From Oscillospiraceae bacterium (GTDB taxonomy: Bacteria; Bacillota; Clostridia; Oscillospirales; Acutalibacteraceae): a DNA stretch of 64,000 nucleotides. Position 1 is the stretch's first letter, and each line of letters starts with the position of its first letter. The stretch lies in assembly GCA_015066365.1 (NCBI GenBank), contig SVON01000003.1, forward strand, positions 61,416 through 125,415, read 5' to 3'. Shown in pieces: positions 1-52,843 of this stretch. Below the pieces are notes generated by a model that made no database searches, was not told the DNA's origin, and was given only the letters and a program-made list of their open reading frames with translations. A program made the position numbers and the translations under genes.

Positions 1-619
1 GCACGCGGTGCACAACGCCACCTACGTCCTCATCGCTTCTCCGGTGGGTTCGTACTACAAAGAAGGCATCAACCCGGTGAAGATTATGATCGAGACCGAA
101 GATGTGCGTGCGGTGCGCGGCGGCACCGGTGAAGCCAAGTGCGGCGGCAACTACGCCGCATCCAACCGGGCCGGCAAGCGGGCGGAGGAAAAGGGCTATT
201 CTCAGGTGCTGTGGCTGGACGGTGTCCACCGCAAGTACATTGAGGAGGTGGGCGCCATGAACGTGATGTTCAAGATCAAGGGCGAGATCGTCACCCCGGC
301 GCTGTCCGGCTCCATCCTGCCCGGCATCACCCGCAAGTCCATCATCGAGGTGCTGAAAGACAAGGGCTACACCGTGTCCGAGCGGCTCTTATCCATCGAC
401 GAGCTGACCGCCGCTATGGCGGACGGCACCTTGGAAGAGGCCTGGGGCTGCGGTACCGCCGCGGTGGTGTCTCCCATCGGCGAGCTGGCCTATGAGGGCA
501 GGCAGTATCCCGTCAACGGCGGCGAAATCGGCCCCGTGACCCAGATGCTGTACGATACCCTCACCGGCATTCAGTGGGGCAAGACCCCCGACCCCTACGG
601 CTGGACCGTGCAGCTGTAA
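1..619 (+). CDS. ilvE: branched-chain amino acid aminotransferase, C-terminal part (5' end outside window; reading frame of ORF 8..619)
   Basis: ORF is open to the window edge. Translation resembles fold-type IV aminotransferases (GGTGEAKCGGNYAAS, EEVGAMNVMF, GITRKSIIE). A terminator follows. Confidence 0.85.
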   Translation, partial: HAVHNATYVLIASPVGSYYKEGINPVKIMIETEDVRAVRGGTGEAKCGGNYAASNRAGKRAEEKGYSQVLWLDGVHRKYIEEVGAMNVMFKIKGEIVTPALSGSILPGITRKSIIEVLKDKGYTVSERLLSIDELTAAMADGTLEEAWGCGTAAVVSPIGELAYEGRQYPVNGGEIGPVTQMLYDTLTGIQWGKTPDPYGWTVQL

Positions 620-629
620 ATTGAGAGAA

Positions 630-665
630 AGGCTCACAAGGTCATCCACCTTGTGAGCCTTTTTA
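630..665 (+). terminator. rho-independent terminator of ilvE
   Basis: aggctcacaagg / ccttgtgagcct stem followed by a T-run. Confidence 0.75.
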
Positions 666-687
666 TGTGTGGTGAATAGACCAAAGG

Positions 688-817
688 CCCCCTTGTGCAA
701 AGGGGGCTGTCAGCCGTTAGGCTGACTGGGGGATTGTTAATTGACAAAACGTGTGTGTAGTTGACAATCCCTCCGACCTCGCTATCGCTCGGCCACCTCC
801 CTTTACACAAGGGAGGC
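688..817. repeat. hairpin-rich intergenic repeat element (three short GC hairpins)
   Basis: Hairpins at 688-706 (cccccttgtgcaaaggggg), 709-726 (gtcagccgttaggctgac) and 796-816 (cctccct..agggagg). Segment 772-817 is closely similar to 19518-19562. Confidence 0.5.
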
Positions 818-842
818 TACGGGGAACTTCGTTGTTTGAAAG

Positions 843-871
843 TTGACTTTTAATAGGTGTAATGATACAAT
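843..871 (+). promoter_or_regulatory. sigma-A type promoter for the AT-rich orphan gene
   Basis: TTGACT (843-848), 17-bp spacer, TACAAT (866-871). Confidence 0.5.
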
Positions 872-906
872 TAATAAAGGTTGTGTTGTAAAAGGAGTTG
901 TGCTTT

Positions 907-1575
907 ATGGGTATATTTGCAGATTTAAGAGCGATTGCCAATGTTCAAAAAATCAGAAATGGTAGCACTGCAAAACTCTCTATATCTCAGATTACGAATT
1001 TACTTGTAAATATGATGGATGCTAGAAACAATCTTTCAGTGCAGCAGTACAGAGAAGTTTGTATACTTTTCGAACGACTTCGCAAGGATAAGAAGAAAAT
1101 AAAAGTTGATTACAGGGAATATTTGCGCATTGCTTTAGGAATAATTATGGAATTTGATTTGATTGCACCCTATGAACTCTTTTGTGGAGGGGATAGCGAG
1201 GAGTTCTCTTTGTTATTGAATGCGGTGCGACAAGAAACTAGGCCAAGTGCTGATTTTGAATTGAGTATGGAAGAAAAACAGTACGCCAAAGAATTAGTGA
1301 AAAAGTCAAATGGAATAATTACCGAGGAAGAATCAATAGGTTTTGTCAAAATACTATTATTGCAAGCAAGGTTTGACAAAGAGAAAATTATAGATGCGTT
1401 TGACGACTTTTCATATGATATCGTTAATAAGTGTGGCGAGATTTCCTCTATAGCTAAAGTATCGTTTTTTATAGGAGCTTTGAATGCTAATGGTATCATT
1501 AGCGAAAGTGAAATGCATGAAATGAATGATTCTTTTAATAAAGTGATTATGGAAACACTTATGAATAAACAATAA
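907..1575 (+). CDS. hypothetical protein encoded in an AT-rich island
   Basis: ATG at 907 lies 9 nt after AAAGGAG. The 222-aa protein looks mostly helical and I recognise no motif. Composition is sharply A/T-rich compared with the flanks. Confidence 0.7.
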   Translation: MGIFADLRAIANVQKIRNGSTAKLSISQITNLLVNMMDARNNLSVQQYREVCILFERLRKDKKKIKVDYREYLRIALGIIMEFDLIAPYELFCGGDSEEFSLLLNAVRQETRPSADFELSMEEKQYAKELVKKSNGIITEEESIGFVKILLLQARFDKEKIIDAFDDFSYDIVNKCGEISSIAKVSFFIGALNANGIISESEMHEMNDSFNKVIMETLMNKQ

Positions 1576-1593
1576 AAAATCTCGCCGCCCCAC

Positions 1594-1622
1594 TTGACAA
1601 ACCGGTGGGGTGGTGCTATAAT
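1594..1622 (+). promoter_or_regulatory. consensus sigma-A promoter of the T-box operon
   Basis: TTGACA (1594-1599), 17-bp spacer, TATAAT (1617-1622). Confidence 0.7.
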
Positions 1623-1644
1623 TCCTTTAACACTTTAACTTGTG

Positions 1645-1911
1645 AAATGCGTTGACGGAGAATTTCTCGTTCATCCGAACGTCCCAGAGAGCCGCCGTTG
1701 CTGTGAGGGCGGCACGTTCCGAATGAGAGTCTGGCTCCTGAGCAGAGTGCCCCAACCCTTTTGGCAGTAGGGCATTACGGCTTGCCCCGTTACCATGGCA
1801 GGAGGCTTGTTGGAGCCTTGCAGAGTGACCGCTTATGCGGTAATTAGGGTGGTACCACGGAATGACATTTCGTCCCTAAGGCATAGTATTGCCTTAGGGT
1901 TTTTTATTTTT
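1645..1911 (+). promoter_or_regulatory. T-box riboswitch leader (tRNA-sensing transcription attenuator)
   Basis: Stem I K-turn pair GCGUUGACGGAG / CUCCUGAGC. AG-bulge CAGAGAG with a distal loop. T-box motif AATTAGGGTGGTACCACGG at 1842-1860. Terminator ccctaaggc/gccttaggg (1874-1899) plus T-run, whose 5' arm can pair with TAGGG of the T-box as an antiterminator. Confidence 0.85.
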
Positions 1912-1948
1912 GGCGTGCCAACACGCGCACACAGAGGAGAGAGTTTGT

Positions 1949-3313
1949 ATGAAACACATCCGCATCGCCGACACGACCTTGTGTCAGGGTAACTACACCT
2001 TCAAGGAGAAGATCGAGATGGCCCGCCAGTTGGAAAAACTGGGGGTGGACGTGATCGAGCTGCCCGCCATCACCGAGGTGCGCTCCGACACCCTGTTGGT
2101 GCGCACCATGGCCTCCTTTGTGAAGAATGCCATTCTGTCGGTGGCGGCGGGTGTCACCGCCGAGAGCGTGGAGTTGGCGGCTGCCGCCCTGGAGGGTGCC
2201 GCCAAGCCCCAAATCCGTATTCAGCTGCCGGTGTCCCCGGTGGGGATGGAATACACCTGCCACAAAAAGGCGGATAAGATGCTGGGTTGGATCTCCGAGA
2301 TCGTTGCCGCCGCCAAGCAAAAGGGCGTGGCGGTGGAATTCTGCGCCGTGGACGCCACCCGTGCCGACGACGGCTATCTGCAGAAAGCCATTGATGCCGC
2401 CACCGAGGCCGGGGCGGATACCGTCTCCGTGTGGGATTCCACCGGTGGTCGTCTGCCGGACGATTTCGCCGCCTTTGTGAACGAGATCAAGACCGACCTG
2501 CCCCTGGGCGTGGCCTGCGATAACCAAAACGGCCTGGCCGCTGCCTCCGCCATTTTGGCGGTGCAGGCCGGCGCCGACTGCGTCAAGACCGCCATCGGCG
2601 GTGCCATCACCGACCTTGTCACCTTTGCAACGATGGTGAAAAACTGCGGCGACAGCTACGGCTTTGCCACCGGCATCCGTTACACCGAGATGGGCCGCAT
2701 CGTGGGGCAGATCGCCTGGATCACCGACCCGGCCCGCAACGAGAAGCCCGCCGGTGTCACCGCCACCGCCGCTGAGGGTATCCAGCTGGACGCCAACGAC
2801 GACCGGGAGGCGGTTGCTGCTGCGGTAGCCAAACTGGGCTACGACCTGTCCGAGGAAGACTCCGCCCGCGTCTATGAGGAGTTTTGCCGGGTGGCGGAGA
2901 AAAAGACGGTGGCCGCCAAGGAACTGGAGGCCATCGTGGCCAACGTGGCTATGCAGGTACCGGACGCTTATCAGTTGGTCAGCTACGTCATCAACTCCGG
3001 TAACATCATCTCCGCTTCCGCACAAATCTCGTTACAGCGCGACGGAAAAACCCTCCAGAGCGTGTCCATCGGGGATGGCCCCATCGACGCCGCCTTCAAG
3101 GCGATTGACCAGATCATCGGTCACCACTACGAGCTGGACGATTTCCAGATTCAAGCGGTCACCGAGGGCAAAGAGGCGGTGGGTCAGGCGCTGGTGAAGC
3201 TCCGTGACCGGGGACGGCTCTATTCCGGCACCGGTATCTCCACCGACATTCTGGGCGCCTCTCTGCGGGCCTATCTCAACGCCGTTAATAAGATCATTTA
3301 TGAGGAGGGTTAA
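1949..3313 (+). CDS. 2-isopropylmalate/citramalate synthase-like protein with degenerate catalytic motifs and an intact LeuA-type C-terminal regulatory domain
   Basis: ATG at 1949 follows GAGGAGAG. The HMGL-like fold is recognisable (IADTTL.., VDVIELP, EFCAVDATR), as is a C-terminal LeuA_dimer-like region (GDGPIDAAFKAID...TEGKEAVGQA...G.GISTDILGAS). The canonical RDGEQ and HxH motifs are replaced. Confidence 0.75.
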   Translation: MKHIRIADTTLCQGNYTFKEKIEMARQLEKLGVDVIELPAITEVRSDTLLVRTMASFVKNAILSVAAGVTAESVELAAAALEGAAKPQIRIQLPVSPVGMEYTCHKKADKMLGWISEIVAAAKQKGVAVEFCAVDATRADDGYLQKAIDAATEAGADTVSVWDSTGGRLPDDFAAFVNEIKTDLPLGVACDNQNGLAAASAILAVQAGADCVKTAIGGAITDLVTFATMVKNCGDSYGFATGIRYTEMGRIVGQIAWITDPARNEKPAGVTATAAEGIQLDANDDREAVAAAVAKLGYDLSEEDSARVYEEFCRVAEKKTVAAKELEAIVANVAMQVPDAYQLVSYVINSGNIISASAQISLQRDGKTLQSVSIGDGPIDAAFKAIDQIIGHHYELDDFQIQAVTEGKEAVGQALVKLRDRGRLYSGTGISTDILGASLRAYLNAVNKIIYEEG

Positions 3314-3316
3314 CGA

Positions 3317-5821
3317 ATGAAACTCTCTTTTTCAACCAAGGGGTGGCATAGTCCCACCTTTGAGCAGTTCTGCGACGTGGCGAAAGACCTGCGTTTTCAG
3401 GGCATTGAACTGCACAATATCTACAACCGCCTGTTCACCGACAAGGACGGCGCTTTTCACGATTACGCTGCCGCGGCGACCCGTCGCCGCCTGTTTGAAA
3501 AGGGGCTGGATATCCCCTGCATCGACACGGTGTGCAACGCTTCTGACGGTCCCACCGACCGGGCGGTGGAGGAGATCACCCGGTGCGTGGAGATCGCCGC
3601 CAATCTGTCCATCCCCTGCGTGCGGTTGAAGGCCGCTGACGCCGAGGATAAAGAGGCCGCTGTGGCGCAGGTGTCGGCGTTGGTTCAGCGGATGCTGCCC
3701 ACCGCCGAGTCACAAAAGGTGACGCTGATTATCGAAACCTCCGGTCTGTTTGCCGATACGGCGGTGCTCCGCGATCTGCTGGACCGCTTTGCCAGCGATC
3801 ACGTAGCGGCGCTGTGGCATTGGTCTGCCGCCTATTTCGGCGGCGGCGAAACGCCGGAGCAGGTGATTAAGAACCTGGGTGCCTACGTGCGCCACGTCCA
3901 CGTCAGCGATGCCGTCTGTCACGAGGCGGGTCTGGAATACTGTCTGATGGGGGAGGGCGATCTGCCGGTCAAGGAGCTGATGCTGGCTCTGCGCTCGGTC
4001 AACTACGACGGCTTTATCTCGCTGGTGTGGGATCCGGTCTGGTGCCCCGAACTGGACGATATGGAGGTGATCCTCACCCAGTTTGTCCACTATATGCGCC
4101 AGTTTGGGGATACCTCCCGCAACGAGAGCGCCCTCTACTGGAATCGCGCCCATACCGGTAAATACGTGTGGGAAAAGGACCGGCTTATCGACTGCACCTT
4201 CTCTCAGGTGCTGGATCGGATGGTGGAGGAATTCCCCGATCAGTACTGCTTCAAGTACACCACCCTGGATTACACCCGCACCTACGCCCAGTTCCGGGAC
4301 GACGTGGACGAGTGTGCCCGCGCCCTGATCGCCATGGGGGTCAAGGCCGGCACCCACGTGGCGGTATGGGCCTCCAACGTGCCCCAGTGGTACATCGCCT
4401 TTTGGGCGACGGTAAAGCTGGGCGCGGTGCTGGTGACGGTGAACACCGCCTATAAGATTCACGAGATCGAGTATCTTCTGCGCCAGTCGGATAGCCACAC
4501 CCTGATTATGACCGAGGGGGCCAAGGATTGCCACTACGGCAAGATCGTGGCAGAGCTTTGCCCGGAACTGGCCTCGCTGAAACCCGGTCAGCCCCTCCAC
4601 GCCAAGCGCCTGCCTTTTCTGCGCAACGTGGTGACGGTGGGCTATCGGCAAAAGGGCTGTCTGGAGTGGAACGACCTGATGGAGCGGGCATCGCAAACCC
4701 CGCTGTCTGAGGTGCACCGGATGGCCGCCTTGGTCAACAAGGACGACGTGTGCAATATGCAGTATACCTCCGGCACCACCGGCTTCCCCAAGGGCGTGAT
4801 GCTGACCCACTACAACGTGGTGAACAACGGCAAATACATCGGCGACCACATGGAGCTGTCCACCGCCGACCGGATGATGATCCAGGTGCCGATGTTCCAT
4901 TGTTTCGGTATGGTGTTGAGTATGACCGCCAGTATGACCCACGGCACCACCATGTTGCCCCTGCCGTATTTCTCGCCCAAGCCGGCGCTGGCCTGCGTCC
5001 ACAATGAGCACGTCACCGCCTTTAACGGCGTGCCCACCATGTTTATTGCGATGATGCAGCACCCGGATTTTGAAAAGACGGATTTCTCCTATCTGCGTAT
5101 CGGCATTATGGCGGGCTCCAACTGCCCCGCCGACCTGATGAAGGAGGCCGCCAACGGACGGATGGGGATGAAGGAGATCGTGTCGGTGTATGGCCAGACC
5201 GAGGCCGCCCCCGGCTGTACGATGAGCAGCTACTACGACTCGCTGGAGGTGCGTACCGAAACGGTGGGCAGCGCCTTTGCCAACGTAGAGTGCAAGATCA
5301 TTGACCCCGAGACCGGTGCCGATTGTCCGGATGGGGTCAATGGCGAGTTCGTGGCCCGGGGCTATAACATTATGAAGGGGTATTACAAGATGCCCGCCGC
5401 CACCGCCGAGGCCATCGACGCTCAGGGCTGGCTTCATACCGGCGACCTGGCCTGCCGCCGCCCCGACGGCAACTATAACATCACCGGCCGTCTGAAGGAT
5501 ATGATCATCCGGGGCGGCGAAAATATCTATCCCAAAGAGATTGAGGAATTTATCTATACCTGCCCCAAGGTGCGGGACGTGCAGGTCATCGGTGTGCCGG
5601 ACGAGAAGTACGGCGAGGAGATCATGGCCTGCGTCATTCTCAAGGAGGGGGAACGGATGACCGAGACGGAAATGTCTCAGTATATCGCCGCCCATATGGC
5701 CCGGCACAAGGTGCCCCGCTACATCCGATTTGTGGAAAAATTTCCTATGAATGCCGCGGGCAAAATTCTTAAATATAAGATGAGAGAAGAAGCCGAGGCG
5801 TGGATCAAAAGTAAGGAGTGA
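3317..5821 (+). CDS. fusion protein: N-terminal xylose-isomerase-like TIM barrel (sugar phosphate isomerase/epimerase family) plus C-terminal AMP-dependent acyl-CoA synthetase/ligase
   Basis: RBS GAGGAGGG precedes the ATG. Residues 1-~270 are TIM-barrel-like (GIELHN.., IIETSG, HVHVSD, ISLVWD). The C-terminal ~560 aa carry ANL motifs (YTSGTTGFPKGVMLTH, GYNIMKGYY, TGDL, GRLKDMIIRGGENIYP). Confidence 0.8.
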   Translation: MKLSFSTKGWHSPTFEQFCDVAKDLRFQGIELHNIYNRLFTDKDGAFHDYAAAATRRRLFEKGLDIPCIDTVCNASDGPTDRAVEEITRCVEIAANLSIPCVRLKAADAEDKEAAVAQVSALVQRMLPTAESQKVTLIIETSGLFADTAVLRDLLDRFASDHVAALWHWSAAYFGGGETPEQVIKNLGAYVRHVHVSDAVCHEAGLEYCLMGEGDLPVKELMLALRSVNYDGFISLVWDPVWCPELDDMEVILTQFVHYMRQFGDTSRNESALYWNRAHTGKYVWEKDRLIDCTFSQVLDRMVEEFPDQYCFKYTTLDYTRTYAQFRDDVDECARALIAMGVKAGTHVAVWASNVPQWYIAFWATVKLGAVLVTVNTAYKIHEIEYLLRQSDSHTLIMTEGAKDCHYGKIVAELCPELASLKPGQPLHAKRLPFLRNVVTVGYRQKGCLEWNDLMERASQTPLSEVHRMAALVNKDDVCNMQYTSGTTGFPKGVMLTHYNVVNNGKYIGDHMELSTADRMMIQVPMFHCFGMVLSMTASMTHGTTMLPLPYFSPKPALACVHNEHVTAFNGVPTMFIAMMQHPDFEKTDFSYLRIGIMAGSNCPADLMKEAANGRMGMKEIVSVYGQTEAAPGCTMSSYYDSLEVRTETVGSAFANVECKIIDPETGADCPDGVNGEFVARGYNIMKGYYKMPAATAEAIDAQGWLHTGDLACRRPDGNYNITGRLKDMIIRGGENIYPKEIEEFIYTCPKVRDVQVIGVPDEKYGEEIMACVILKEGERMTETEMSQYIAAHMARHKVPRYIRFVEKFPMNAAGKILKYKMREEAEAWIKSKE

Positions 5822-5826
5822 CCGCT

Positions 5827-6630
5827 GTGGTCGGACAATATAAAGTGATGGACGCCCACTGTCACGTCTATCCCGCCGCCATCGCCGCCAAAGCGGTGGC
5901 GGGGACCGATGCCTTTTATGGGGTCAAATCGGTGTACGACGGCACGGTGGAAACCCTGCTGGACAAGGAGATCGCCGCCGGGGTGGACCACTGTGTCATC
6001 CAGTCGGTGGCCACCACCCCTAAGCAGGTTAGTAGCATCAACGAGTTTATCGCCCGCACCGTGGCGGCGGGGGAGGGTCGGTTCACCGGCCTGGGCACCC
6101 TCCATCCGGACAGCACCGATTTGGTCGGGGATGTGAACCACATTCTGGAATTGGGGCTCAAAGGCGTAAAACTCCATCCCGACATTCAGGCGTTCAAGAT
6201 CGACGATTATCGGTGCCTGAAAATCTACGAACTGTGTGAACAGCACCACCTTCCGGTGCTGCTCCATACCGGAGACGACCGATACGATTATTCCAACCCC
6301 AACCGCCTATTGCCGGTGCTGGAGATCTACCAGGATCTCACCTTTATCGGCGCTCATCTGGCGGGCTATTCCATCTGGGAGGAGGCCTGCGACAAGCTGG
6401 GCCACGCCCCCAACCTGTACGTGGATTGTTCCTCGTCCTTCTTCTGCCTGTCTACGGAAAAGGCGGAGGAACTGATGCGCCGCTGGGGCGCTGACCGCGT
6501 GCTATTCGGCACGGATTACCCCATGTGGGCGGCGGATAAGGAGCTGGCCACCCTGCTGTCGATGCACTTTAGCGAAGAGGAGTTCAAAAAGATTTTGTGG
6601 GATAATGCGTACCGTCTGTTTGTGGAATAA
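5827..6630 (+). CDS. amidohydrolase-2 family metal-dependent hydrolase/decarboxylase-like protein
   Basis: Motifs MDAHCHVYP, GVKLHPD, PVLLHTGD, AHLAG, LFGTDYPMW. Start is uncertain: GTG 5818 overlaps the upstream stop, GTG 5827 lies 8 nt after AAGGAG, and ATG 5848 is also possible. Confidence 0.8.
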   Translation: MVGQYKVMDAHCHVYPAAIAAKAVAGTDAFYGVKSVYDGTVETLLDKEIAAGVDHCVIQSVATTPKQVSSINEFIARTVAAGEGRFTGLGTLHPDSTDLVGDVNHILELGLKGVKLHPDIQAFKIDDYRCLKIYELCEQHHLPVLLHTGDDRYDYSNPNRLLPVLEIYQDLTFIGAHLAGYSIWEEACDKLGHAPNLYVDCSSSFFCLSTEKAEELMRRWGADRVLFGTDYPMWAADKELATLLSMHFSEEEFKKILWDNAYRLFVE

Positions 6631-6641
6631 CAGAACCAAAA

Positions 6642-6670
6642 AAGAGCCGAGGCGTTAGCCTCGGCTCTTT
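6642..6670. terminator. bidirectional rho-independent terminator between convergent genes
   Basis: aagagccgaggc / gcctcggctctt 12-bp arms with a 4-nt loop. Confidence 0.7.
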
Positions 6671-6678
6671 CCGATTTC

Positions 6679-6885
6679 TCACGTCTGATATTCCAAAATG
6701 TCACCGACGTTGCACTCCAGCGCCTCGCAAATGGCCGCCAGGGTGGAAAAACGCACCGCCGTCACCTTGTTGTTTTTGATCTTGGAGAGGTTGACGTTGG
6801 AGATGCCCACCCGCTCAGCCAGTTCATTGAGGGACATTTTTCGCTCCACCATCATCCGGTCCAATCGGAGAACGATCTTACCCAT
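6679..6885 (-). CDS. small XRE/Cro-type helix-turn-helix transcriptional regulator
   Basis: 68 aa starting MGKIVLRLDRMM..., with HTH segment SLNELAERVGISNVNLSKI. RBS AAGGAGG. Sits directly downstream of the membrane-protein gene. Confidence 0.85.
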   Translation of the reverse strand: MGKIVLRLDRMMVERKMSLNELAERVGISNVNLSKIKNNKVTAVRFSTLAAICEALECNVGDILEYQT

Positions 6886-6895
6886 ACCGCCCTCC

Positions 6896-7456
6896 TTACA
6901 GCAGACCGTCCACGTCCTGCTCCAGCTGGGCACCGTGGACGAAGATCTGGGTCAGGCACAGCACGAGCACCCCCATAAAGACGCCGTTCATATCCATACT
7001 GTTCTCGGTGGCGTCCACGCCGGTGATCAGACGGACGACGATACTCATGATCAGGCCCACCACCGGCACGGCGATGGAGAAATAGCCGATCTCCCGCATC
7101 CTGCGGATGTTGTCCTTTTGGAAGGGGGAGGCGTTTTCGGAGTTCTTAAAGATCAAATGCAGGTTGCGGAATACCAGCGCCATCACCGCCAGGATAAGGG
7201 TGGCCCCGATGCCAAACAGCAGAAAGGCGGTCCAATCCATCTCACCGTGGATCACCGGCACGTTGGTCTGAAAGCCGTACACCGTCAGGGTGGCACCGCA
7301 GCACTCCTTGGCCTCAAAGCCTACAAAGTATTTGACCCACTCCGGCTGAATGGCGGCACATACGGTGGCGGCGGCCATCAGGGCGGTTCCCACCCAATGG
7401 AATACCTCCAAAATCTTAGCCAGTATGTTTCCGAGTTTATAGAAATTCTTTTTCAT
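6896..7456 (-). CDS. multi-pass membrane protein (DUF2975-like partner of the small HTH regulator)
   Basis: ATG at 7456 follows AGGAGG. Several hydrophobic segments. The gene pair arrangement is typical of DUF2975 plus HTH; the family assignment is from memory. Confidence 0.65.
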   Translation of the reverse strand: MKKNFYKLGNILAKILEVFHWVGTALMAAATVCAAIQPEWVKYFVGFEAKECCGATLTVYGFQTNVPVIHGEMDWTAFLLFGIGATLILAVMALVFRNLHLIFKNSENASPFQKDNIRRMREIGYFSIAVPVVGLIMSIVVRLITGVDATENSMDMNGVFMGVLVLCLTQIFVHGAQLEQDVDGLL

Positions 7457-9722: not shown

Positions 9723-11144
9723 ATGAAAAACACCGAAAAAACCATGGAAAAAATCGTGACCTTGTGCAAAGGCCGCGGTTATATCTTCCCCGGCTCCGAG
9801 ATCTACGGCGGTCTGGCCAACACCTGGGACTACGGTCCTTTGGGCGTGGAGCTGAAGAACAACGTCAAAAAGGCGTGGTGGAAGAAGTTTGTTCAGGAGA
9901 ACCCCTATAACGTGGGTCTGGACGCCGCCATCCTGATGAATCCCCAGACCTGGGTTGCTTCCGGTCACCTGGCCGGTTTTTCCGACCCGCTGATGGACTG
10001 CAAAGAGTGTAAAGAGCGTTTTCGCGCGGATAAGATCATCGAGGACTGGTGTCAGGAGACCGGTTATGAGTTGCCCAAGCCCATCGACGCCTTCTCCCAG
10101 GCGGAGATGAAGGAGTTTGTGGAGGAGCACACCATTCCCTGTCCCACCTGCGGCAAGCACAATTTCACCGACATCCGTCAGTTCAACCTGATGTTCAAGA
10201 CCTTCCAGGGTGTCACCGAGGACGCTAAGAACACCGTGTATCTGCGTCCCGAGACCGCCCAGGGCATCTTTACCAACTTTGTAAACGTTCAGCGCACCAC
10301 CCGCCGGAAACTCCCCTTTGGTATCGCCCAGATCGGTAAGTCTTTCCGTAACGAGATCACCCCCGGTAACTTCATTTTCCGGGTGCGCGAGTTCGAGCAG
10401 ATGGAGCTGGAGTTCTTCTGTATGCCCGGCACCGACCTGGAGTGGTTCAGCTACTGGCGTGAGTTCTGCCACAACTGGCTGCTGGCCATTGGTCTGAAAG
10501 AGGAGAACATCCGTCTGCGCGACCACGACCCGGAGGAGTTGTGCTTCTATTCCAAAGCGACCACCGACTTTGAGTTCCTGTTCCCCTTCGGCTGGGGTGA
10601 GCTGTGGGGCGTGGCGGATCGTACCGACTACGACCTGACCCAGCACCAGAACACCTCCAACAAGGACCTGACCTACTTCGATCAGGAGTCCGGCCAGCAC
10701 GTGATCCCCTACGTGGTGGAGCCCTCTTTGGGCGTGGAGCGTACCGTGCTGTCCGTTCTGTGCGACGCCTATGACGAAGAGGTGGTGGACGCCGAGAAGA
10801 ACGACGTGCGTACCGTGCTGCGTCTGCATCCCGCCCTGGCTCCTTTCAAGTGCGCTGTGCTGCCCCTGTCCAAGAAGCTGGGCGACAAGGCCCGGGAGAT
10901 CCAGCTGGAGCTGTCCAAGTACTTTATGGTGGACTACGACGACGCCGGCTCCATCGGCAAGCGGTATCGCCGCGAGGACGAGATCGGTACCCCCTATTGC
11001 ATCACCGTGGACTTTGAGACGGTGGGTGATGACAATACCCCCGCCGATAATGCCGTCACCGTTCGTGACCGTGACACCATGGAGCAGGTGCGTGTGCCGA
11101 TCGCTGAGCTGAAGGATTACATTGAGTCTAAGATCGCATTCTGA
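9723..11144 (+). CDS. glyQS: glycine--tRNA ligase (homodimeric class II type)
   Basis: [23 protein letters not shown], class II motifs ([25 protein letters not shown]), and a C-terminal anticodon-binding region. Confidence 0.9.
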
Positions 11145-11919: not shown

Positions 11920-11957
11920 TGCTCAAAATCTCCGAAAAACCCATTAACCGTAGGGAT

Positions 11958-11974
11958 TGTCGAACTTTGTCGGA
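11958..11974 (+). promoter_or_regulatory. two adjacent 0A-box-like sites upstream of spo0A
   Basis: TGTCGAA (11958-11964) and TGTCGGA (11968-11974), compared with the 0A-box consensus TGNCGAA. Confidence 0.45.
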
Positions 11975-12073
11975 AAGAAAATACCATTTTTTGTCATTTT
12001 GCTATTGCCATTTTTTGGTAATTGTGGTAAGATAATCTCGCCGGCAAACAAAACAGAGGAGAATCGGAGAACG

Positions 12074-12835
12074 ATGAGCAGAAAAATCAATGTCCTATTA
12101 GCGGATAACAGCGACTATTTTGCCATTCCCTGTGCCAACGTGATGAAGGCTCACGGACTGGATGTGACCCTGACGGAAAAGGATGGAAAAGCGGTATTGG
12201 AGGCGATTTCCGACAATCCGCCGGACGTATTGCTGATGGATCTGTTTTTACCCCGTCTGGACGCCTTGGGTGTGTTGGAGGGGATGAAGCAGCTGGAGTT
12301 ACCTGTTCGCCCCCAGGTGATGGTGATGTCCGGATTTGACAATCCGGCGTTGGAGCGGGAGATTATGAGTGCCGGGGCGGATTATTATTTTCTCAAGCCC
12401 TTTGATGCCGGTGCCATGAGTCAACGCATTCTGACCCTGTGCGGGGAGCATACCGAGCCACCGACCGGTCGTCCGGTATCCCGCAATCTGGAGATGCAGG
12501 TCACCGAGATCATCCACCAGATCGGTGTCCCCGCCCACATTAAAGGCTACCAGTATCTGCGGGACGCCATCCTGATGGCCATTGAGGACGGGGAAATCAT
12601 CAACGCCGTTACCAAACGCTTATACCCGGCGGTGGCCAAGCGCCACGGCACCACCTCCTCCCGGGTGGAGCGGGCCATCCGTCACGCCATAGAGGTGGCG
12701 TGGGATCGGGGTGACGTGGATACCCTTACCGCCTATTTTGGCTATACCATCCATAACGAGAGGGGTAAGCCCACCAACTCGGAATTCATCGCCATGATTG
12801 CGGATAAATTCCGTTTGCAGTTAAAGATTTCCTGA
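12074..12835 (+). CDS. spo0A: sporulation master regulator Spo0A
   Basis: Receiver domain (LLADNS.., [13 protein letters not shown]) plus a Spo0A-specific C-terminal domain ([51 protein letters not shown]). Confidence 0.93.
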
Positions 12836-14672: not shown

Positions 14673-14799
14673 GCGTAAAACGTAAGCAAAAAAGCAGGCA
14701 CCCCACGGGGCGCCTGTTTTTTTGTGCTTTTCTCTTGCACTTTTTGACGGAAAGGTTTACAATAAAAGAGTATATGTCATTAAGGAAAGGCGGACACCT

Positions 14800-16188
14800 A
14801 TGCTGCTGCAAAAGAACCAGTTCATTGAATTGACCGTCACCGGCATCACCGGCGAGGGGAACGGCGTAGCCCGGTACGTAGCGGAAGAATACCCTGCACC
14901 GGGCTTCGTGGTGTTTATCCCCGGCACCGCTCTGGGTGACCGGTTGGTGTGCCGTATCCTCAAGGTGCAGAAGAACTGCGCCTTTGGTAAGATTGAAGAG
15001 CTGTTGGAACGATCCCCCGACCGTAAAGAGACTCAGGATTGCCCTGCCTACGGCAAGTGCGGAGGATGCAACTGGCGGCACGTGACCTATGAGGCGGAGT
15101 GCCGGTATAAGCACGCCTGGGTGCAGGATACCATCCGGCGGGTGGGGGGCATTGACGCCCCGGTGTTGCCGCTGATGGGGGGCGTGCGGGCCAACCGCTA
15201 CCGCAACAAAGCCCAGTTCCCGGTGGCTCCCGGCCCGGACGGTCGTCCGGTCATCGGCTTTTACGCCCCCCGGAGTCACCGCATTATTCCCTGCCGGGAT
15301 TGCAAGTTACAGCCCAAGGGCTATGCCGCCGTGCTGGAGGTGGTGGAGCGTTGGATGGTGGAGAACGCCGTCCCAGCCTACGATGAGACCGCCCACACCG
15401 GCTTGGTGCGGCATATCTATATCCGTCAGGCCGCCGTCACCGGAGAGATGATGGTGTGCCTCGTGTGTAAAGAGCGCAAACTGCCTGCCGAGGAGGCCCT
15501 GGTGTCCTTGCTGGTGGAGGCGGCGCCCCAGATGGTGTCCCTGTCGGTGAACGTAAACCCCGACAAGACCAACGTGATCCTGGGTAAGCGCACCGTCACT
15601 CTATGGGGGGCAGACTCCATCGTGGACCGGCTGTGCGGTCTGCATTTCCGGTTGTCGCCCCACTCTTTCTATCAGGTGAACCACGCCCAAACCGAGCGGT
15701 TGTACCGTTTGGCGGCCCAGGCCGCCGCGCTGACCGGAAAAGAGACCTTGCTGGACCTGTACTGCGGTACCGGCACCATCGGTCTGTCTATGGCGCACAC
15801 CGCCGGCGCTGTCATCGGCGTAGAGGTGGTGGAGGCGGCGGTGCGGGACGCCAAGAAGAACGCCACCGCCAACCGCATCCGCAACGCCCGGTTTATCTGC
15901 GCCGATGCGGCGCAGGCCGCCGCTCAGCTGGCGGCGGAGGGCACCCAGGTGGACGTGGTGGTGCTGGACCCGCCCCGCAAGGGCTGTTCCCCCGACCTGA
16001 TCGACACCGTAGCCGGGATGAACCCGGAGCGGGTGGTGTACGTGTCCTGCGACCCGGCCACGTTGGCGCGGGATCTGAAGCTGTTTAGGGAAAAGGGGTA
16101 TTACACCGAATGGGTGCAGCCCGTTGACCTATTCCCCAGAACGGCTCATTGTGAAAACGTGGTGCGCCTATCCAAACATAACGCATAA
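14800..16188 (+). CDS. 23S rRNA (uracil-5-)-methyltransferase, RumA/RlmD type with TRAM domain
   Basis: N-terminal TRAM-like barrel, Cys cluster (CPAYGKCGGCNW), SAM motif (LDLYCGTGTIGL), and DPPRKG..YVSC. Confidence 0.85.
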   Translation: MLLQKNQFIELTVTGITGEGNGVARYVAEEYPAPGFVVFIPGTALGDRLVCRILKVQKNCAFGKIEELLERSPDRKETQDCPAYGKCGGCNWRHVTYEAECRYKHAWVQDTIRRVGGIDAPVLPLMGGVRANRYRNKAQFPVAPGPDGRPVIGFYAPRSHRIIPCRDCKLQPKGYAAVLEVVERWMVENAVPAYDETAHTGLVRHIYIRQAAVTGEMMVCLVCKERKLPAEEALVSLLVEAAPQMVSLSVNVNPDKTNVILGKRTVTLWGADSIVDRLCGLHFRLSPHSFYQVNHAQTERLYRLAAQAAALTGKETLLDLYCGTGTIGLSMAHTAGAVIGVEVVEAAVRDAKKNATANRIRNARFICADAAQAAAQLAAEGTQVDVVVLDPPRKGCSPDLIDTVAGMNPERVVYVSCDPATLARDLKLFREKGYYTEWVQPVDLFPRTAHCENVVRLSKHNA

Positions 16189-16202
16189 AACAGAGGTAAC
16201 CT

Positions 16203-17351
16203 ATGAGCAAACCGGTCTTACACTGCCCCCACGCCAAAAAGTGCGGTGGCTGTCAACTGCAGAATATGACCTATGAGCGTCAGCTCAGCTTTAAGCAGGT
16301 CAAGGTGATCAAGCTGCTGGGTAAATACCGCCACGTGGACGAGATCATCGGGATGCCCCACCCCTATCACTACCGCAACAAGGTGCAGGCCGCCTTCGGT
16401 GAGCGGGGGCGGGAGATCATCTCCGGCATCTACCAGTCCTCCACCCACAAGATCGTGCCGGTGGATCGTTGTCTCATCGAGGACGAAAAAGCCGACGAGA
16501 TCATCGTCACCATCCGCAAGCTGGTTAAGAGCTTTAAGCTGCGCGCTTTCAACGATGAGATTATGAAAGGCTTTCTCCGCCACGTGCTGATCAAACGGGG
16601 ATTTTCCAGCGGTCAGGTGATGGTGGTGCTGGTGACCGGCACGATGGAGTTCCCCAAAGAGGAGCCGTTTGTCAATGCCCTCTTGTCCCGCCACCCGGAG
16701 ATTACCACCATCGTCCAAAACGTGAACAACAAGCGCACCAGTCTGCTTCTGGGTGAGGAGAGCCGGGTGCTGTTTGGTGACGGCTATATTGAGGAAGATC
16801 TGTGCGGCTTCCGGTTCCGCATTTCCCCCAAGGCGTTTTACCAGATCAACCCCACCCAGACCGAGGTGCTGTATAATAAAGCGCTGACCTTTGCCGAACT
16901 CACCGGCAAGGAGACGGTGCTGGACGCCTATTGCGGCACCGGTACCATCGGCATCATCGCCTCGCCCCGCGCTAAGGGGGTGGTGGGCGTGGAGCTCAAC
17001 GCTGACGCCGTCAAGGACGCCAAGGTCAACGCCGGGCTGAACGGCGTGGAGAATATTGAGTTCTACGAGGACGACGCCGGCCGCTTTATGGTGAAAGAGG
17101 CTCAGCGCGGGGCCCGGTACGACGTGGTGCTGATGGATCCGCCCCGGGCCGGTGCCAGCCAGGAGTTTCTCAGATCTCTGGTGACTCTGGCCCCTAAGAA
17201 GGTAGTCTATATCTCTTGCAACCCGGAGACCCAGGCTCGTGACCTGGCGTTTTTGGTGAAAAACGGTTACCGGGTGAAGAAAATTCAGCCGGTGGATATG
17301 TTCCCCCACACCGAGCACGTGGAGTGCGTGGTGAGCCTTATGCGGAAATAA
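16203..17351 (+). CDS. second RumA-family RNA (uracil-5-)-methyltransferase, lacking TRAM
   Basis: CPHAKKCGGCQLQ, LDAYCGTGTIGI, DPPRAG and YISCNP motifs. Confidence 0.85.
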   Translation: MSKPVLHCPHAKKCGGCQLQNMTYERQLSFKQVKVIKLLGKYRHVDEIIGMPHPYHYRNKVQAAFGERGREIISGIYQSSTHKIVPVDRCLIEDEKADEIIVTIRKLVKSFKLRAFNDEIMKGFLRHVLIKRGFSSGQVMVVLVTGTMEFPKEEPFVNALLSRHPEITTIVQNVNNKRTSLLLGEESRVLFGDGYIEEDLCGFRFRISPKAFYQINPTQTEVLYNKALTFAELTGKETVLDAYCGTGTIGIIASPRAKGVVGVELNADAVKDAKVNAGLNGVENIEFYEDDAGRFMVKEAQRGARYDVVLMDPPRAGASQEFLRSLVTLAPKKVVYISCNPETQARDLAFLVKNGYRVKKIQPVDMFPHTEHVECVVSLMRK

Positions 17352-51076: not shown

Positions 51077-51141
51077 TAAAGACCGCCTGGATGGCTGTGC
51101 TCATCTGTGGCATACAGAAACTTCAAAATGAGGAGAGCACA

Positions 51142-51927
51142 ATGGAAGCTTTTAATCATTGGTTGAATCAAATACAGCATAACGGCCAGGGTGTTGAACT
51201 GTACAATCTGGTGGGCACCCTTTGTTTTGTCGTGCTGGTTATTAGCGGTATTTGGTATGTTTGGCGGCAAAAACTGAGTTTTTTTAAGGCGATGCCCATT
51301 GTGGTGATGGCCTGTGTGTTTTTGATTTACGCTCAGCATCTGATGACCTGGTATCGCCGAGATTTTGCGCTGGAGAGTTACATGGGCACCGCTAACGTTG
51401 GCTATGCTTTTACGCTGTTGCCGCTGTTTTGTTGGCTGTGTGCAAAGGCCTTTTCCGTTTCCACCGCTACGGTGGGGGAACTGGTGGCGGTCACCACCCT
51501 CTCTTGGCACGTAATCGGCCGCTCCGGTTGCACCTTTTCCGGTTGTTGCCGTGGTGTTGACTGCCCGTGGGGCGTCTATTCCGTCTATGCCGGCGGAAAC
51601 ACGTTTCCGGTCTGCTGGCTGGAGAGTTTGATCGCTCTGGGCGTATTGGTGTTTCTGCTGGTGCGTCTGTTCCGCCGGGAGCGCGGTGTGCCGGATGATG
51701 GGCGCGCCTTACCGTACGCTCTGCTGCTGTACGGTAGTGGCCGCTTTTTCTCCGAGTTTTTGCGGCACCACCCTCAGGAGGATATCCTCTTTGGCTTTTT
51801 GCCGGAGTTCTCGGTTCACGCCCTGCTGATGGCGATGGTGGGCGGTATTCTGCTGTACAGCGTTATACGGGGACACCGGCCTGCTGTTTCGTCTGCAACG
51901 GCGGATACGGCGGTTTCACAAGAATAA
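51142..51927 (+). CDS. Lgt (prolipoprotein diacylglyceryl transferase) family membrane protein, Cys-rich variant motif
   Basis: Aligns by eye to the C-terminal two thirds of Lgt. GRSGCTFSGCCRG corresponds to the GR.GNF.N.E..G signature, FPVCWLESL to P.QLYE, and YGSGRFFSEFLR to YG.FRF..EF.R. Confidence 0.6.
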   Translation: MEAFNHWLNQIQHNGQGVELYNLVGTLCFVVLVISGIWYVWRQKLSFFKAMPIVVMACVFLIYAQHLMTWYRRDFALESYMGTANVGYAFTLLPLFCWLCAKAFSVSTATVGELVAVTTLSWHVIGRSGCTFSGCCRGVDCPWGVYSVYAGGNTFPVCWLESLIALGVLVFLLVRLFRRERGVPDDGRALPYALLLYGSGRFFSEFLRHHPQEDILFGFLPEFSVHALLMAMVGGILLYSVIRGHRPAVSSATADTAVSQE

Positions 51928-51988
51928 GTTTACAAAAATGTGGGTCTGGGTCTGTTTGGCTCCGCCCCCATGAAACGAGGTTTCATAA

Positions 51989-52843
51989 ATGGAACAATTC
52001 AACAACTGGCTTAATGAAATTCAGCACAATGGAAGAGGCATCGAGCTGTACAATCTGACCGGTACCGTCTGTATAGCGCTGTTGGCGGTTTCGATACTGC
52101 TATACGTTTGGCGGCAGAGGCTGAATCCGTTTAAGGCGATTCCCATCGGGATAATCGTGTACTATTTTCTCGGCTATGCCCAGCATATCATGACCTGGTA
52201 CCGACGCGATTTTGCGTTCGGCGAGGGGTATTATGGCACCGCCAACATCGGGTATGCGTTCGTCCTGCTGCCGCTTCTCTGCTGGCTGTGCGACGTCACC
52301 TTTAACCTGCCCAAGCACACCTCCGGCGAGCTGGCGGCGATCACCACGCTGGGATGGCACTTTGTGGGTCGCTCCGGCTGCACCTTTACCGGCTGTTGCC
52401 ACGGCATTCCCAGCAGTTGGGGTATCTACACCCACAAAATTGACAGCCTTGCCTTCCCGGTCTGTTGGCTGGAGAGCCTGCTTACTCTGGGCATCCTGAT
52501 CTTCCTGCTGGTGCGGCTGTTCCGCCGTGGTCTTATGCCGGAAGGGAAACAGAGCCGCTTCCGTCTGGTGAACTGGTATTACCGCAAGCGCCGTATGCTG
52601 GATAACGGTCGGGCGCTTCCCTATATGTTGCTGTTTTACGGCACCGGCCGTTTCTTCACCGAGTTTTTGCGGTACCACCCCGAGGACGATATCCTCTTCG
52701 GTTTCCTGCCGGAGTTCTCCATTCACGCCCTGCTGATGGCAGTGGTGGGCGGTTATCTTTTGTACCGCCTGATTAAAAAAGAGAAGGCTGCGGCTGTACC
52801 GGAAGAGGAAGCGCTTCCTACCCTCAAGGGTCAGCGGCACTAA
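51989..52843 (+). CDS. second Lgt-family membrane protein (tandem paralog)
   Basis: MEQFNNWLNEIQHNG..., GRSGCTFTGCCHG, FPVCWLESL and YGTGRFFTEFLR. Colinear with the upstream gene. Confidence 0.6.
   Translation: MEQFNNWLNEIQHNGRGIELYNLTGTVCIALLAVSILLYVWRQRLNPFKAIPIGIIVYYFLGYAQHIMTWYRRDFAFGEGYYGTANIGYAFVLLPLLCWLCDVTFNLPKHTSGELAAITTLGWHFVGRSGCTFTGCCHGIPSSWGIYTHKIDSLAFPVCWLESLLTLGILIFLLVRLFRRGLMPEGKQSRFRLVNWYYRKRRMLDNGRALPYMLLFYGTGRFFTEFLRYHPEDDILFGFLPEFSIHALLMAVVGGYLLYRLIKKEKAAAVPEEEALPTLKGQRH

Follow-up and report, generated by a model that had tools for sequence, protein, structure and literature searches.

What does a biosynthetic enzyme do once its active site has gone and its regulatory domain has stayed? 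The question is raised by a gene at positions 1949–3313 (+ strand) of a 64,000-nucleotide stretch of DNA from an Oscillospiraceae bacterium (assembly GCA_015066365.1, contig SVON01000003.1, positions 61,416 to 125,415), the whole of which is referred to here as the window. The gene is an intact open reading frame for a protein of 454 amino acids, a catalytically degenerate paralogue of 2-isopropylmalate synthase (IPMS, LeuA) that is here called the LeuA-like protein, and it lies directly upstream of the gene for an acyl-CoA ligase fusion. A preliminary description of the window had held that the protein lost the catalytic and metal-binding residues of its family. This was borne out, and three further losses were added to those that it listed (the base Glu, the length of the GERAGN loop and the HESGIHQ segment). 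We propose, with a probability of about 0.55, that the LeuA-like protein is a leucine-sensing regulatory partner of an isovalerate-activating ligase, resembling HisZ in this respect.

Catalytic and regulatory parts of the LeuA-like protein

The LeuA-like gene starts at ATG 1949, with the Shine–Dalgarno sequence GAGGAG at 9-nt spacing on its 5' side. A longer open reading frame from TTG 1910 was rejected as the start, because it would open inside the terminator of the T-box leader that precedes the gene. Residues 5–230 match the Pfam family HMGL-like (PF00682, 1.2e-29) and residues 321–449 match LeuA_dimer (PF08502, 6.7e-33; model positions 2–130 of 131). The protein can thus be divided into an HMGL-like (beta/alpha)8 barrel without its metal site (residues 1–235; 1949–2653, +), a shortened linker and subdomain region without the HESGIHQ motif of subdomain I (residues 236–320; 2654–2908, +), and an allosteric LeuA_dimer domain with the motif GDGPIDAAF (residues 321–454; 2909–3310, +). 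The preliminary description had called this last domain intact, in agreement with the near-full-length match to PF08502 and with its being the best-conserved part of the protein.

As a whole, the LeuA-like protein scores below every NCBIfam equivalog cutoff for LeuA (272.8 bits against 532 for NF002086 and 249.3 against 598.7 for TIGR00973), and members of its family are annotated by NCBI as 'hypothetical protein'. The C-terminal 179 residues (276–454, which include LeuA_dimer) score 148.8 bits against the bacterial LeuA model NF002086, but only 32.5 and 22.1 bits against models of citramalate synthase (CimA). Since this region scores as LeuA and not as CimA, the sensor domain appears to descend from a leucine-regulated enzyme.

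The losses in the barrel were read from HMMER alignments to solved LeuA structures (3ewb, 3rmj) and from a MAFFT alignment with the LeuA-length proteins P0261 and P0262, both of which carry the canonical motifs. The strings quoted in the preliminary description are all present in the open reading frame: IADTTLCQGNY at residues 6–16 (nucleotides 1964–1996), GVACDNQNG at 187–195 and AIGGAITDL at 215–223, and, towards the C-terminus, GDGPIDAAFKAID at 375–387, TEGKEAVGQALVKL at 405–418 and GISTDILGASLRAYLNAVNK at 429–448. At the N-terminal motif, the canonical DTTLRDGEQtpgvN aligns with DTTLCQG, a gap of six residues and N. Cys12 and Gln13 therefore take the places of the Arg and of the metal-ligand Asp, as had been noted; the accompanying substitution of Glu by Asn was a misreading, because the Glu-Gln of RDGEQ is gone in the 6-residue deletion. 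At the metal-binding pair, SHCHDDLG aligns with vaCDNQNG, so that both His are indeed replaced (Ala189 and Asp191), and the GxGERAGN loop, rightly described as divergent, is shorter by 5 residues. The alignment with P0261 and P0262 also shows that ~30 residues of subdomain I with the HESGIHQ motif are absent.

In the F-S-x-E-D motif the Glu has become Val134, since FSPEDATR in 3ewb and FSCEDALR in 3rmj align with FCAVDATR. We take this Glu to be the general base, on the basis of what is known of the family and of the E218A entry in the review table that is cited next. According to that table, substitutions of R80 and E218 in the IPMS of M. tuberculosis are among the changes that destroy activity (PMC10464499). 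The signature of the DRE-TIM metallolyases is reduced to its Glu (E37 of VIELP), the Arg and Asp being gone here.

A set of homologues was collected by an exhaustive representative search and clustered at 50% identity, and 106 full-length representatives were aligned; unless stated otherwise, the family-wide counts below refer to these. E37 is kept in 75 of the 106, and an HxH at or near the metal site is found in none. Metal ligands that are present but displaced in the alignment were looked for and were likewise not found, the HMM, MAFFT and structure comparisons being in agreement on this point.

An AF2 model of the LeuA-like protein was built from 48 family sequences and compared with the PDB using Foldseek. 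The barrel is modelled with confidence (pLDDT >90 over most of residues 1–240), and superposition on LeuA structures, a check that the preliminary description had suggested, gave an rmsd of 1.8–2.1 Å over ~270 columns on 3rmj, 3ewb and 3eeg. The top matches are only LeuA, methylthioalkylmalate synthase (MAM), homocitrate synthase and citramalate synthase, the first of them being the plant MAM 6e1j. The model and the alignments together indicate that the barrel has kept the LeuA fold but not the LeuA chemistry. As judged from the residues that have been lost, the LeuA-like protein should be unable to catalyse the Claisen condensation. It is a member of the LeuA family by fold and descent that lacks the catalytic features of the family on every test and lies under the curated cutoffs, and it should therefore not be filed as a 2-isopropylmalate synthase.

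Conservation and selection in the family

The LeuA-like family comprises more than 100 clusters at 50% identity, with lengths of 453–480 amino acids and identities to the query down to ~32%. Proteins of LeuA length (503–516 amino acids) turn up in the same representative search only below ~220 bits. Three of these, P0251, P0254 and P0260, show partial motif loss (for example DTTLCDGEQ, R-A-Y for H-C-H, and no HESGIH), and may be either intermediates or independent degenerate lineages of LeuA.

The gene was also followed through 160 loci from species-representative genomes, found by single-protein queries, in which the LeuA-like protein is 41–93% identical to that of the window. Its reading frame is intact in all 160 genomes, with lengths of 454–474 amino acids, and neither truncated versions nor gene fusions of the LeuA-like protein to the ligase occur among these loci. 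Between close relatives, dN/dS is 0.08–0.20 in the barrel and 0.04–0.06 in the regulatory domain. The gene is under purifying selection and is not decaying. Scores far under the LeuA equivalog cutoffs and a database name of 'hypothetical protein' are what might be expected of a pseudogene in decay, or of a true synthase in which the alignment has only displaced the ligands, but the intact frames, the dN/dS values well below 1, the size of the family and the concordant comparisons at the metal site make it scarcely credible that the gene is such a relic or artefact.

Conservation is unevenly distributed over the protein. Mean identity within the family is 57% in the regulatory domain, 34% in the barrel and 26% in the linker, and 42 of the 68 columns conserved at ≥85% fall within the last 134 residues, where almost all of them hold the canonical LeuA residue. 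These regulatory columns include the GxGPxDA loop and others that are common to feedback-regulated LeuA.

The former catalytic positions behave differently from this domain. Among the 106 representatives, residue 12 (formerly Arg) is R in 34, K in 26 and C in 18, and residue 13 (formerly Asp) is highly variable, where no fewer than eight alternatives occur. Position 189 holds E, Q, S, C, R or A, position 191 holds S, A, N or R, and that of the base Glu holds E, L, I or V.

The barrel nevertheless holds a number of near-invariant polar residues (D8, T10, S96, E101, Y102, K107, D135, R138 and D163), which, together with its low dN/dS and confident fold, could point to a neo-functionalised enzyme. 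In that case the barrel would perform a new, metal-independent chemistry, for example on isovaleryl-CoA or 2-oxoisocaproate, and would still be gated by the regulatory domain. Four Cys residues (12, 104, 190 and 233), which are conserved in close relatives (at least 57% identity), could contribute to such a new site. However, the conserved Cys do not reach the wider family, and Cys12, at the position of the catalytic Arg, is kept only in close relatives (77 of 81). The residues at positions 12, 13, 189 and 191 vary across the family, and the analysis of family conservation found no new invariant polar cluster in place of the metal site. For the most part, the conserved barrel residues are those that canonical LeuA conserves too, an overlap that suggests structural roles, and the subdomain with HESGIH that caps the active site has been deleted. 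We therefore consider a new catalytic function improbable. Independently of this question, Cys 12, 104, 190 and 233 might form a lineage-specific metal or redox site.

A leucine T-box operon within a cluster proposed to make branched-chain amino acids

The LeuA-like gene is preceded by a promoter and a transcription attenuator. A sigma-70-type promoter (TTGACA–17 nt–TATAAT with a TG extension; 1594–1622, +) has 12/12 consensus matches, is the best site in the region 600–7000, and ends 20 nt 5' of a T-box leader, a tRNA-sensing attenuator (1643–1880, +) that matches the full length of the RF00230 model at 114.8 bits (gathering score 93). From the columns of the covariance model, the specifier codon is CUG (Leu; 1731–1733, +), followed by the purine G1734 and by the CUCC strand of the basal helix. 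The conserved T-box sequence AGGGUGGUACCACG (1846–1859, +) is aligned to the RF00230 T-box motif with posterior probability '*', and its UGGU (1850–1853) would base-pair with the ACCA terminus of an uncharged tRNA whose discriminator is A73. An intrinsic terminator (1874–1909, +; found by a terminator scan), consisting of a 10-bp stem (1874–1899) and UUUUUUAUUU, overlaps the 3' end of the T-box match. The preliminary description's view that the gene is under T-box control is supported by these elements of the leader.

Specifier codons were called by a parser over all loci, and the calls were checked against alignments to the covariance model. The leaders of the LeuA-like gene carry Leu codons in 105 of 132 cases (CUC 88, CUG 16, CUA 1). 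The cluster also contains two types of ligase related to the branched-chain carboxylic acid CoA synthetase MbcS, and the leaders before one of these carry AUC (Ile) in 43 of 46 cases, while those before the other carry GUA, GUC or GUU (Val) in 38 of 46. The other leaders are mostly ones that the parser failed to read, and those inspected by eye show the expected codons (CUC for Leu; AUC and GUA for the ligases). Where the leader of the window holds CUG-G, the Ile and Val leaders of locus L032 have AUC-A and GUA-G in those model columns. The bases just 5' of the codon vary and the meaning of the codon is kept, which is the signature of a real specifier. T-boxes turn genes on when the cognate tRNA is uncharged. 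On these sequence features, the LeuA-like gene is predicted to head an operon under a Leu-specific T-box, induced by uncharged tRNA-Leu. As a separate observation, the glycyl-tRNA synthetase gene of the window (9723–11144) has no T-box match at the gathering score; many Firmicutes control glyQS by a T-box.

The second gene of the operon (3317–5821, +) encodes an 834-residue fusion of a xylose-isomerase-like (XI-like) TIM barrel (residues ~1–285, nucleotides 3317–4171) and a complete AMP-forming acyl-CoA ligase (residues ~300–816), with Pfam matches to PF01261 (6e-21), PF00501 (1.4e-89) and PF13193 (1.2e-17). The ligase translation has the motifs of the ANL superfamily (YTSGTTGFPKG, YGQTE, TGD, GRLKD and AAGK), and its best NCBIfam match is PRK12583 (641 bits). 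The LeuA-like gene stops at TAA 3311–3313 and the ligase gene starts at ATG 3317, 3 nt later; the ligase Shine–Dalgarno sequence GAGGAGG (3302–3308, +) is made of the last Glu-Glu-Gly codons of the LeuA-like gene, as would be expected from the translational link that had been suggested earlier. The two open reading frames lie in one reading frame and are parted only by TAA-CGA (3299–3319). It may also be noted that the conserved C-terminal Tyr-Glu-Glu codons double as the ligase Shine–Dalgarno sequence, which may explain the conservation of that tail.

The pairing of the two genes is invariant: the XI-ligase fusion follows the LeuA-like gene in all 160 loci wherever the contig extends, and the spacer is 0–10 nt in 97 of the 106 loci in which it was measured. 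The preliminary description had raised the possibility that a C-Q-G-N variant forms a clade that always neighbours the ligase fusion. The pairing holds, but C-Q-G-N does not mark the family, since residue 12 may be R, K or C and the residues that follow it vary.

The XI-like domain has itself been eroded. Its canonical E-D-H-E metal tetrad, with positions assigned from the alignment with Art22 and from the known motifs of the family, survives in only 26 of 102 orthologues, and the protein of the window has E-H-H-V. A sequence search of the PDB with this domain gave no functional lead (a weak match to Art22, 2.9e-05), and NCBIfam has no model for it. The leucine branch thus has two barrels with largely lost catalytic sites, which favours structural or regulatory roles for them.

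Two degenerate barrels in one system, an invariant adjacency with translational coupling, and the fact that PF08502 is also the dimerisation domain of LeuA, as its Pfam name says, would also suit a structural partner that acts independently of leucine. Such a partner might be an assembly factor, a chaperone subunit resembling MbtH or a scaffold between the ligase and the 2-oxoacid:ferredoxin oxidoreductase (Vor) of the cluster, with a C-terminal domain that only dimerises. However, the conserved columns of that domain, with the GxGPxDA loop and others common to feedback-regulated LeuA, go beyond a generic interface, and an end-product sensor at a committed step fits the Leu-specific T-box; a purely structural role therefore seems unlikely to us.

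A third gene (Amidohydro_2; 5818–6630, +) appears to be an accessory member of the operon. It encodes 270 amino acids (PF04909, 4e-31), among which the metal motif DAHCH... seems intact; it begins at a GTG that overlaps the ligase stop, and it lies directly 3' of the ligase in 44 of the 78 loci with room for it. A sequence search of the PDB with this protein gave no functional lead, the nearest entry being the uncharacterised 3irs (BB4693).

The wider cluster was reconstructed from the related loci. Their hosts are mostly metagenome-assembled genomes of Acutalibacteraceae, Oscillospiraceae, Ruminococcus and Faecousia from ruminant, horse, chicken and human guts, and a few are labelled Lachnospiraceae, Peptococcaceae, Tissierellia or Synergistaceae. 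The window opens inside ilvE, of which the 3' end is present (203 codons; 8–619, +). This branched-chain amino acid aminotransferase gene is 98% identical to ilvE of locus L001 and closes the upstream part of the cluster; the full-length orthologue in locus L071 passes NF009897 (483 bits, cutoff 307). L071 also encodes a four-subunit Vor, whose alpha subunit passes the VorB model (535 bits, cutoff 399) and which has beta, gamma and delta subunits as well.

Two paralogous ligases complete the set. Each combines a helix-turn-helix (HTH) domain, Cupin_2 and an AMP-binding domain and has MbcS as its best NCBIfam match (422–437 bits, cutoff 850), and each stands behind its own Rfam-detected T-box, one for Ile and one for Val (L071 279–5282; L032 54–297 and 2684–2939; L001 899–1149). 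NCBIfam has no model for the HTH-cupin region. With a DNA-binding domain and a cupin joined to the enzyme, this kind of ligase may regulate itself. Ligases, Vor and IlvE recur across dozens of loci, in which their order and orientation vary and the gene set is constant.

Neither canonical leuA nor leuABCD was found in the window or within ±10 kb in the 160 loci. This bears on the possibility that the LeuA-like protein modulates a genuine LeuA, forming heterodimers with it under leucine starvation and changing how active it is or how strongly it responds to feedback. LeuA is a domain-swapped dimer in which the accessory domain and the regulatory domain of one chain lie on the catalytic domain of the partner, according to PMC9860122, and the LeuA-like protein has retained the dimerisation domain; the heterodimers would form through these swapped parts. 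The subdomain that touches the active site of the partner is truncated, though, and the constant neighbour of the gene is the ligase fusion and not leuA, so that we regard this possibility as very unlikely.

A few other features of the region were recorded. An open reading frame for 225 amino acids (898–1575, +), between ilvE and the T-box promoter, has a GC content of 34–35% in a region of ~60% GC, no Pfam or PHROG match and no counterpart in 80 related loci; its composition and its absence from relatives make it look like a foreign insertion. An FMN riboswitch (115.7 bits) lies a few kb downstream of the cluster in L032 (18778–18908). Further along the window are Spo0A (11957–12835), which marks a spore-forming Firmicute, tandem tRNA (uracil-5)-methyltransferase-like paralogues (14722–17351), and tandem paralogues of the prolipoprotein diacylglyceryl transferase Lgt (51091–52843). 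A large glycan-utilisation block (21471–61354) includes several giant CBM_4_9 proteins (up to 1426 amino acids), a GH2 beta-galactosidase, a GH130 phosphorylase, DUF5696, an NHL/Yip1 protein and components of ABC sugar transporters.

Proposed role and relation to known systems

It is established for the rumen that leucine can be made from isovalerate by carboxylation and subsequent amination (PMC7356843). Three ligases partitioned among T-boxes and clustered with Vor and IlvE are read most economically as a salvage route of this kind. The cluster would convert external 2-methylbutyrate, isobutyrate and isovalerate to Ile, Val and Leu in three steps, namely activation to the CoA ester, reductive carboxylation to the 2-oxo acid by Vor and transamination by IlvE, with each of three AMP-forming ligases induced by starvation for one branched-chain amino acid. 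We rejected the opposite, catabolic (Stickland-type) direction on two grounds: the ligases are of the AMP-forming type, and induction through the T-boxes comes with starvation for amino acids.

The ligase paired with the LeuA-like protein would activate isovalerate and so serve the leucine branch. The MbcS of S. aureus activates 2-methylbutyrate and isobutyrate and is poor with isovalerate (PMC10026030), which fits a separate type of ligase for this branch. A lone PF08502 domain can work as a recognition module for branched-chain amino acids (PMC13381585). It is this precedent, taken together with the loss of catalysis, the allosteric domain as the best-kept part of the protein and the coupling to the ligase, that leads us to propose a leucine-sensing subunit. 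We hypothesize that the LeuA-like protein binds the ligase as its regulatory subunit and that occupancy of the allosteric domain by leucine is relayed to the ligase, so that the end product would act back on the committed step, which consumes ATP. Such a response to free leucine would be fast and would come on top of the slower control that the T-box exerts through tRNA charging, and the shared message and coupled translation suggest similar amounts of the two proteins.

Several points weigh against this proposal. We infer the substrate of the ligase, the physical complex, the binding of leucine and the allosteric effect. The substrate is suggested by gene context, and PRK12583 is a generic family of fatty-acid-CoA ligases whose cutoff the fusion does not reach. 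The PF08502 domain binds Ile in CimA, and leucine is suggested as the ligand here by the T-box and by the likeness to LeuA alone. The regulatory domain is modelled with low confidence (pLDDT ~45–58), too uncertain for an inspection of a leucine pocket. Purifying selection continues to act on the barrel, and it is not obvious why a purely passive scaffold would require this. A route from isovalerate to leucine needs neither the XI-like domain nor the amidohydrolase, the latter being present in 56% of loci. Finally, since the window starts inside ilvE, it shows neither the Vor genes nor the other ligases.

A broader form of the proposal, to which we give a somewhat lower probability and which we advance tentatively, would make the pseudo-IPMS family a dedicated leucine sensor that gates the activation of isovalerate in an undescribed pathway of gut and rumen Clostridia from branched-chain fatty acids to Ile, Val and Leu. 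In this pathway, each branch would have its own T-box and a sensor attached to its ligase: HTH-cupin for Ile and Val, and a dead LeuA with a degenerate XI-like barrel for Leu.

If the proposal is true, an allosteric biosynthetic enzyme has been stripped of its catalysis, and its end-product sensor now controls another enzyme, one that belongs to an alternative route to that amino acid. The analysis also points to a gene set (three T-box-controlled ligases, Vor and IlvE) for a long-known ability of anaerobes, that of incorporating isovalerate, isobutyrate and 2-methylbutyrate into Leu, Val and Ile. If this holds, the classical use of isoacids by rumen bacteria, a physiology on which isoacid feed supplements rely, would be explained in genetic terms. 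A metabolic reconstruction in which matches to HMGL-like plus LeuA_dimer are scored as LeuA would credit a genome in error with a de novo leucine pathway. To judge from its sequence, the regulatory domain of the LeuA-like protein may be a natural stand-alone leucine-sensing module.

Within reach of our literature search, no description was found of a non-catalytic LeuA-like protein or of a non-catalytic DRE-TIM counterpart, and the literature searched on the gene basis of isoacid use and reductive carboxylation contained no paper that assigns the genes of this cluster. Pseudoenzymes that serve as regulatory subunits are already known; one derived from LeuA, and a T-box-partitioned cluster for isoacid salvage, appear to be undescribed in the searchable literature.

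The closest relative of the LeuA-like protein is bacterial LeuA (EC 2.3.3.13; TIGR00973/NF002086; 3ewb, 3rmj, 1sr9, 3fig). The two share barrel, linker and LeuA_dimer in the same order and the regulatory motifs GDGPIDAAF, T..G..A.G, G.G.STDI and AY..A.N, and the LeuA-like gene stands behind a T-box, as do the ilv-leu genes of Firmicutes. Unlike bacterial LeuA, the LeuA-like protein is ~50 residues shorter and is without the Arg-Asp, the base Glu, the HxH, GERAGN and HESGIH, and its gene is never beside leuBCD and always beside an acyl-CoA ligase. CimA has the same PF08502 sensor domain, Ile-binding in its case, but is an active enzyme.

MbcS of S. aureus resembles the Ile and Val ligases, of which it is the best match, and activates acids from outside the cell. 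These ligases differ from it in scoring under the cutoff of 850 and in their extra N-terminal HTH and cupin domains, and the ligase paired with the LeuA-like protein belongs to another, PRK12583-like ANL subfamily. MbcS feeds the synthesis of fatty acids and not that of amino acids.

Plant MAM (6e1j) is likewise a descendant of IPMS that was recruited to another pathway. The change there was the opposite one: MAM kept catalysis and lost the regulatory domain, whereas the LeuA-like family kept the regulatory domain and lost catalysis.

The working analogy is HisZ, a catalytically dead paralogue of histidyl-tRNA synthetase that serves as the histidine-sensing regulatory subunit of the ATP phosphoribosyltransferase HisG. 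Its fold and family are unrelated to those of the LeuA-like protein, and its complex and allostery, which we infer for the LeuA-like protein, have been demonstrated by experiment. By this analogy, the LeuA-like protein may be a second case of the same arrangement, in which the paralogue of an enzyme has lost catalysis, has kept its amino-acid site and is encoded beside the committed-step enzyme that it would regulate.

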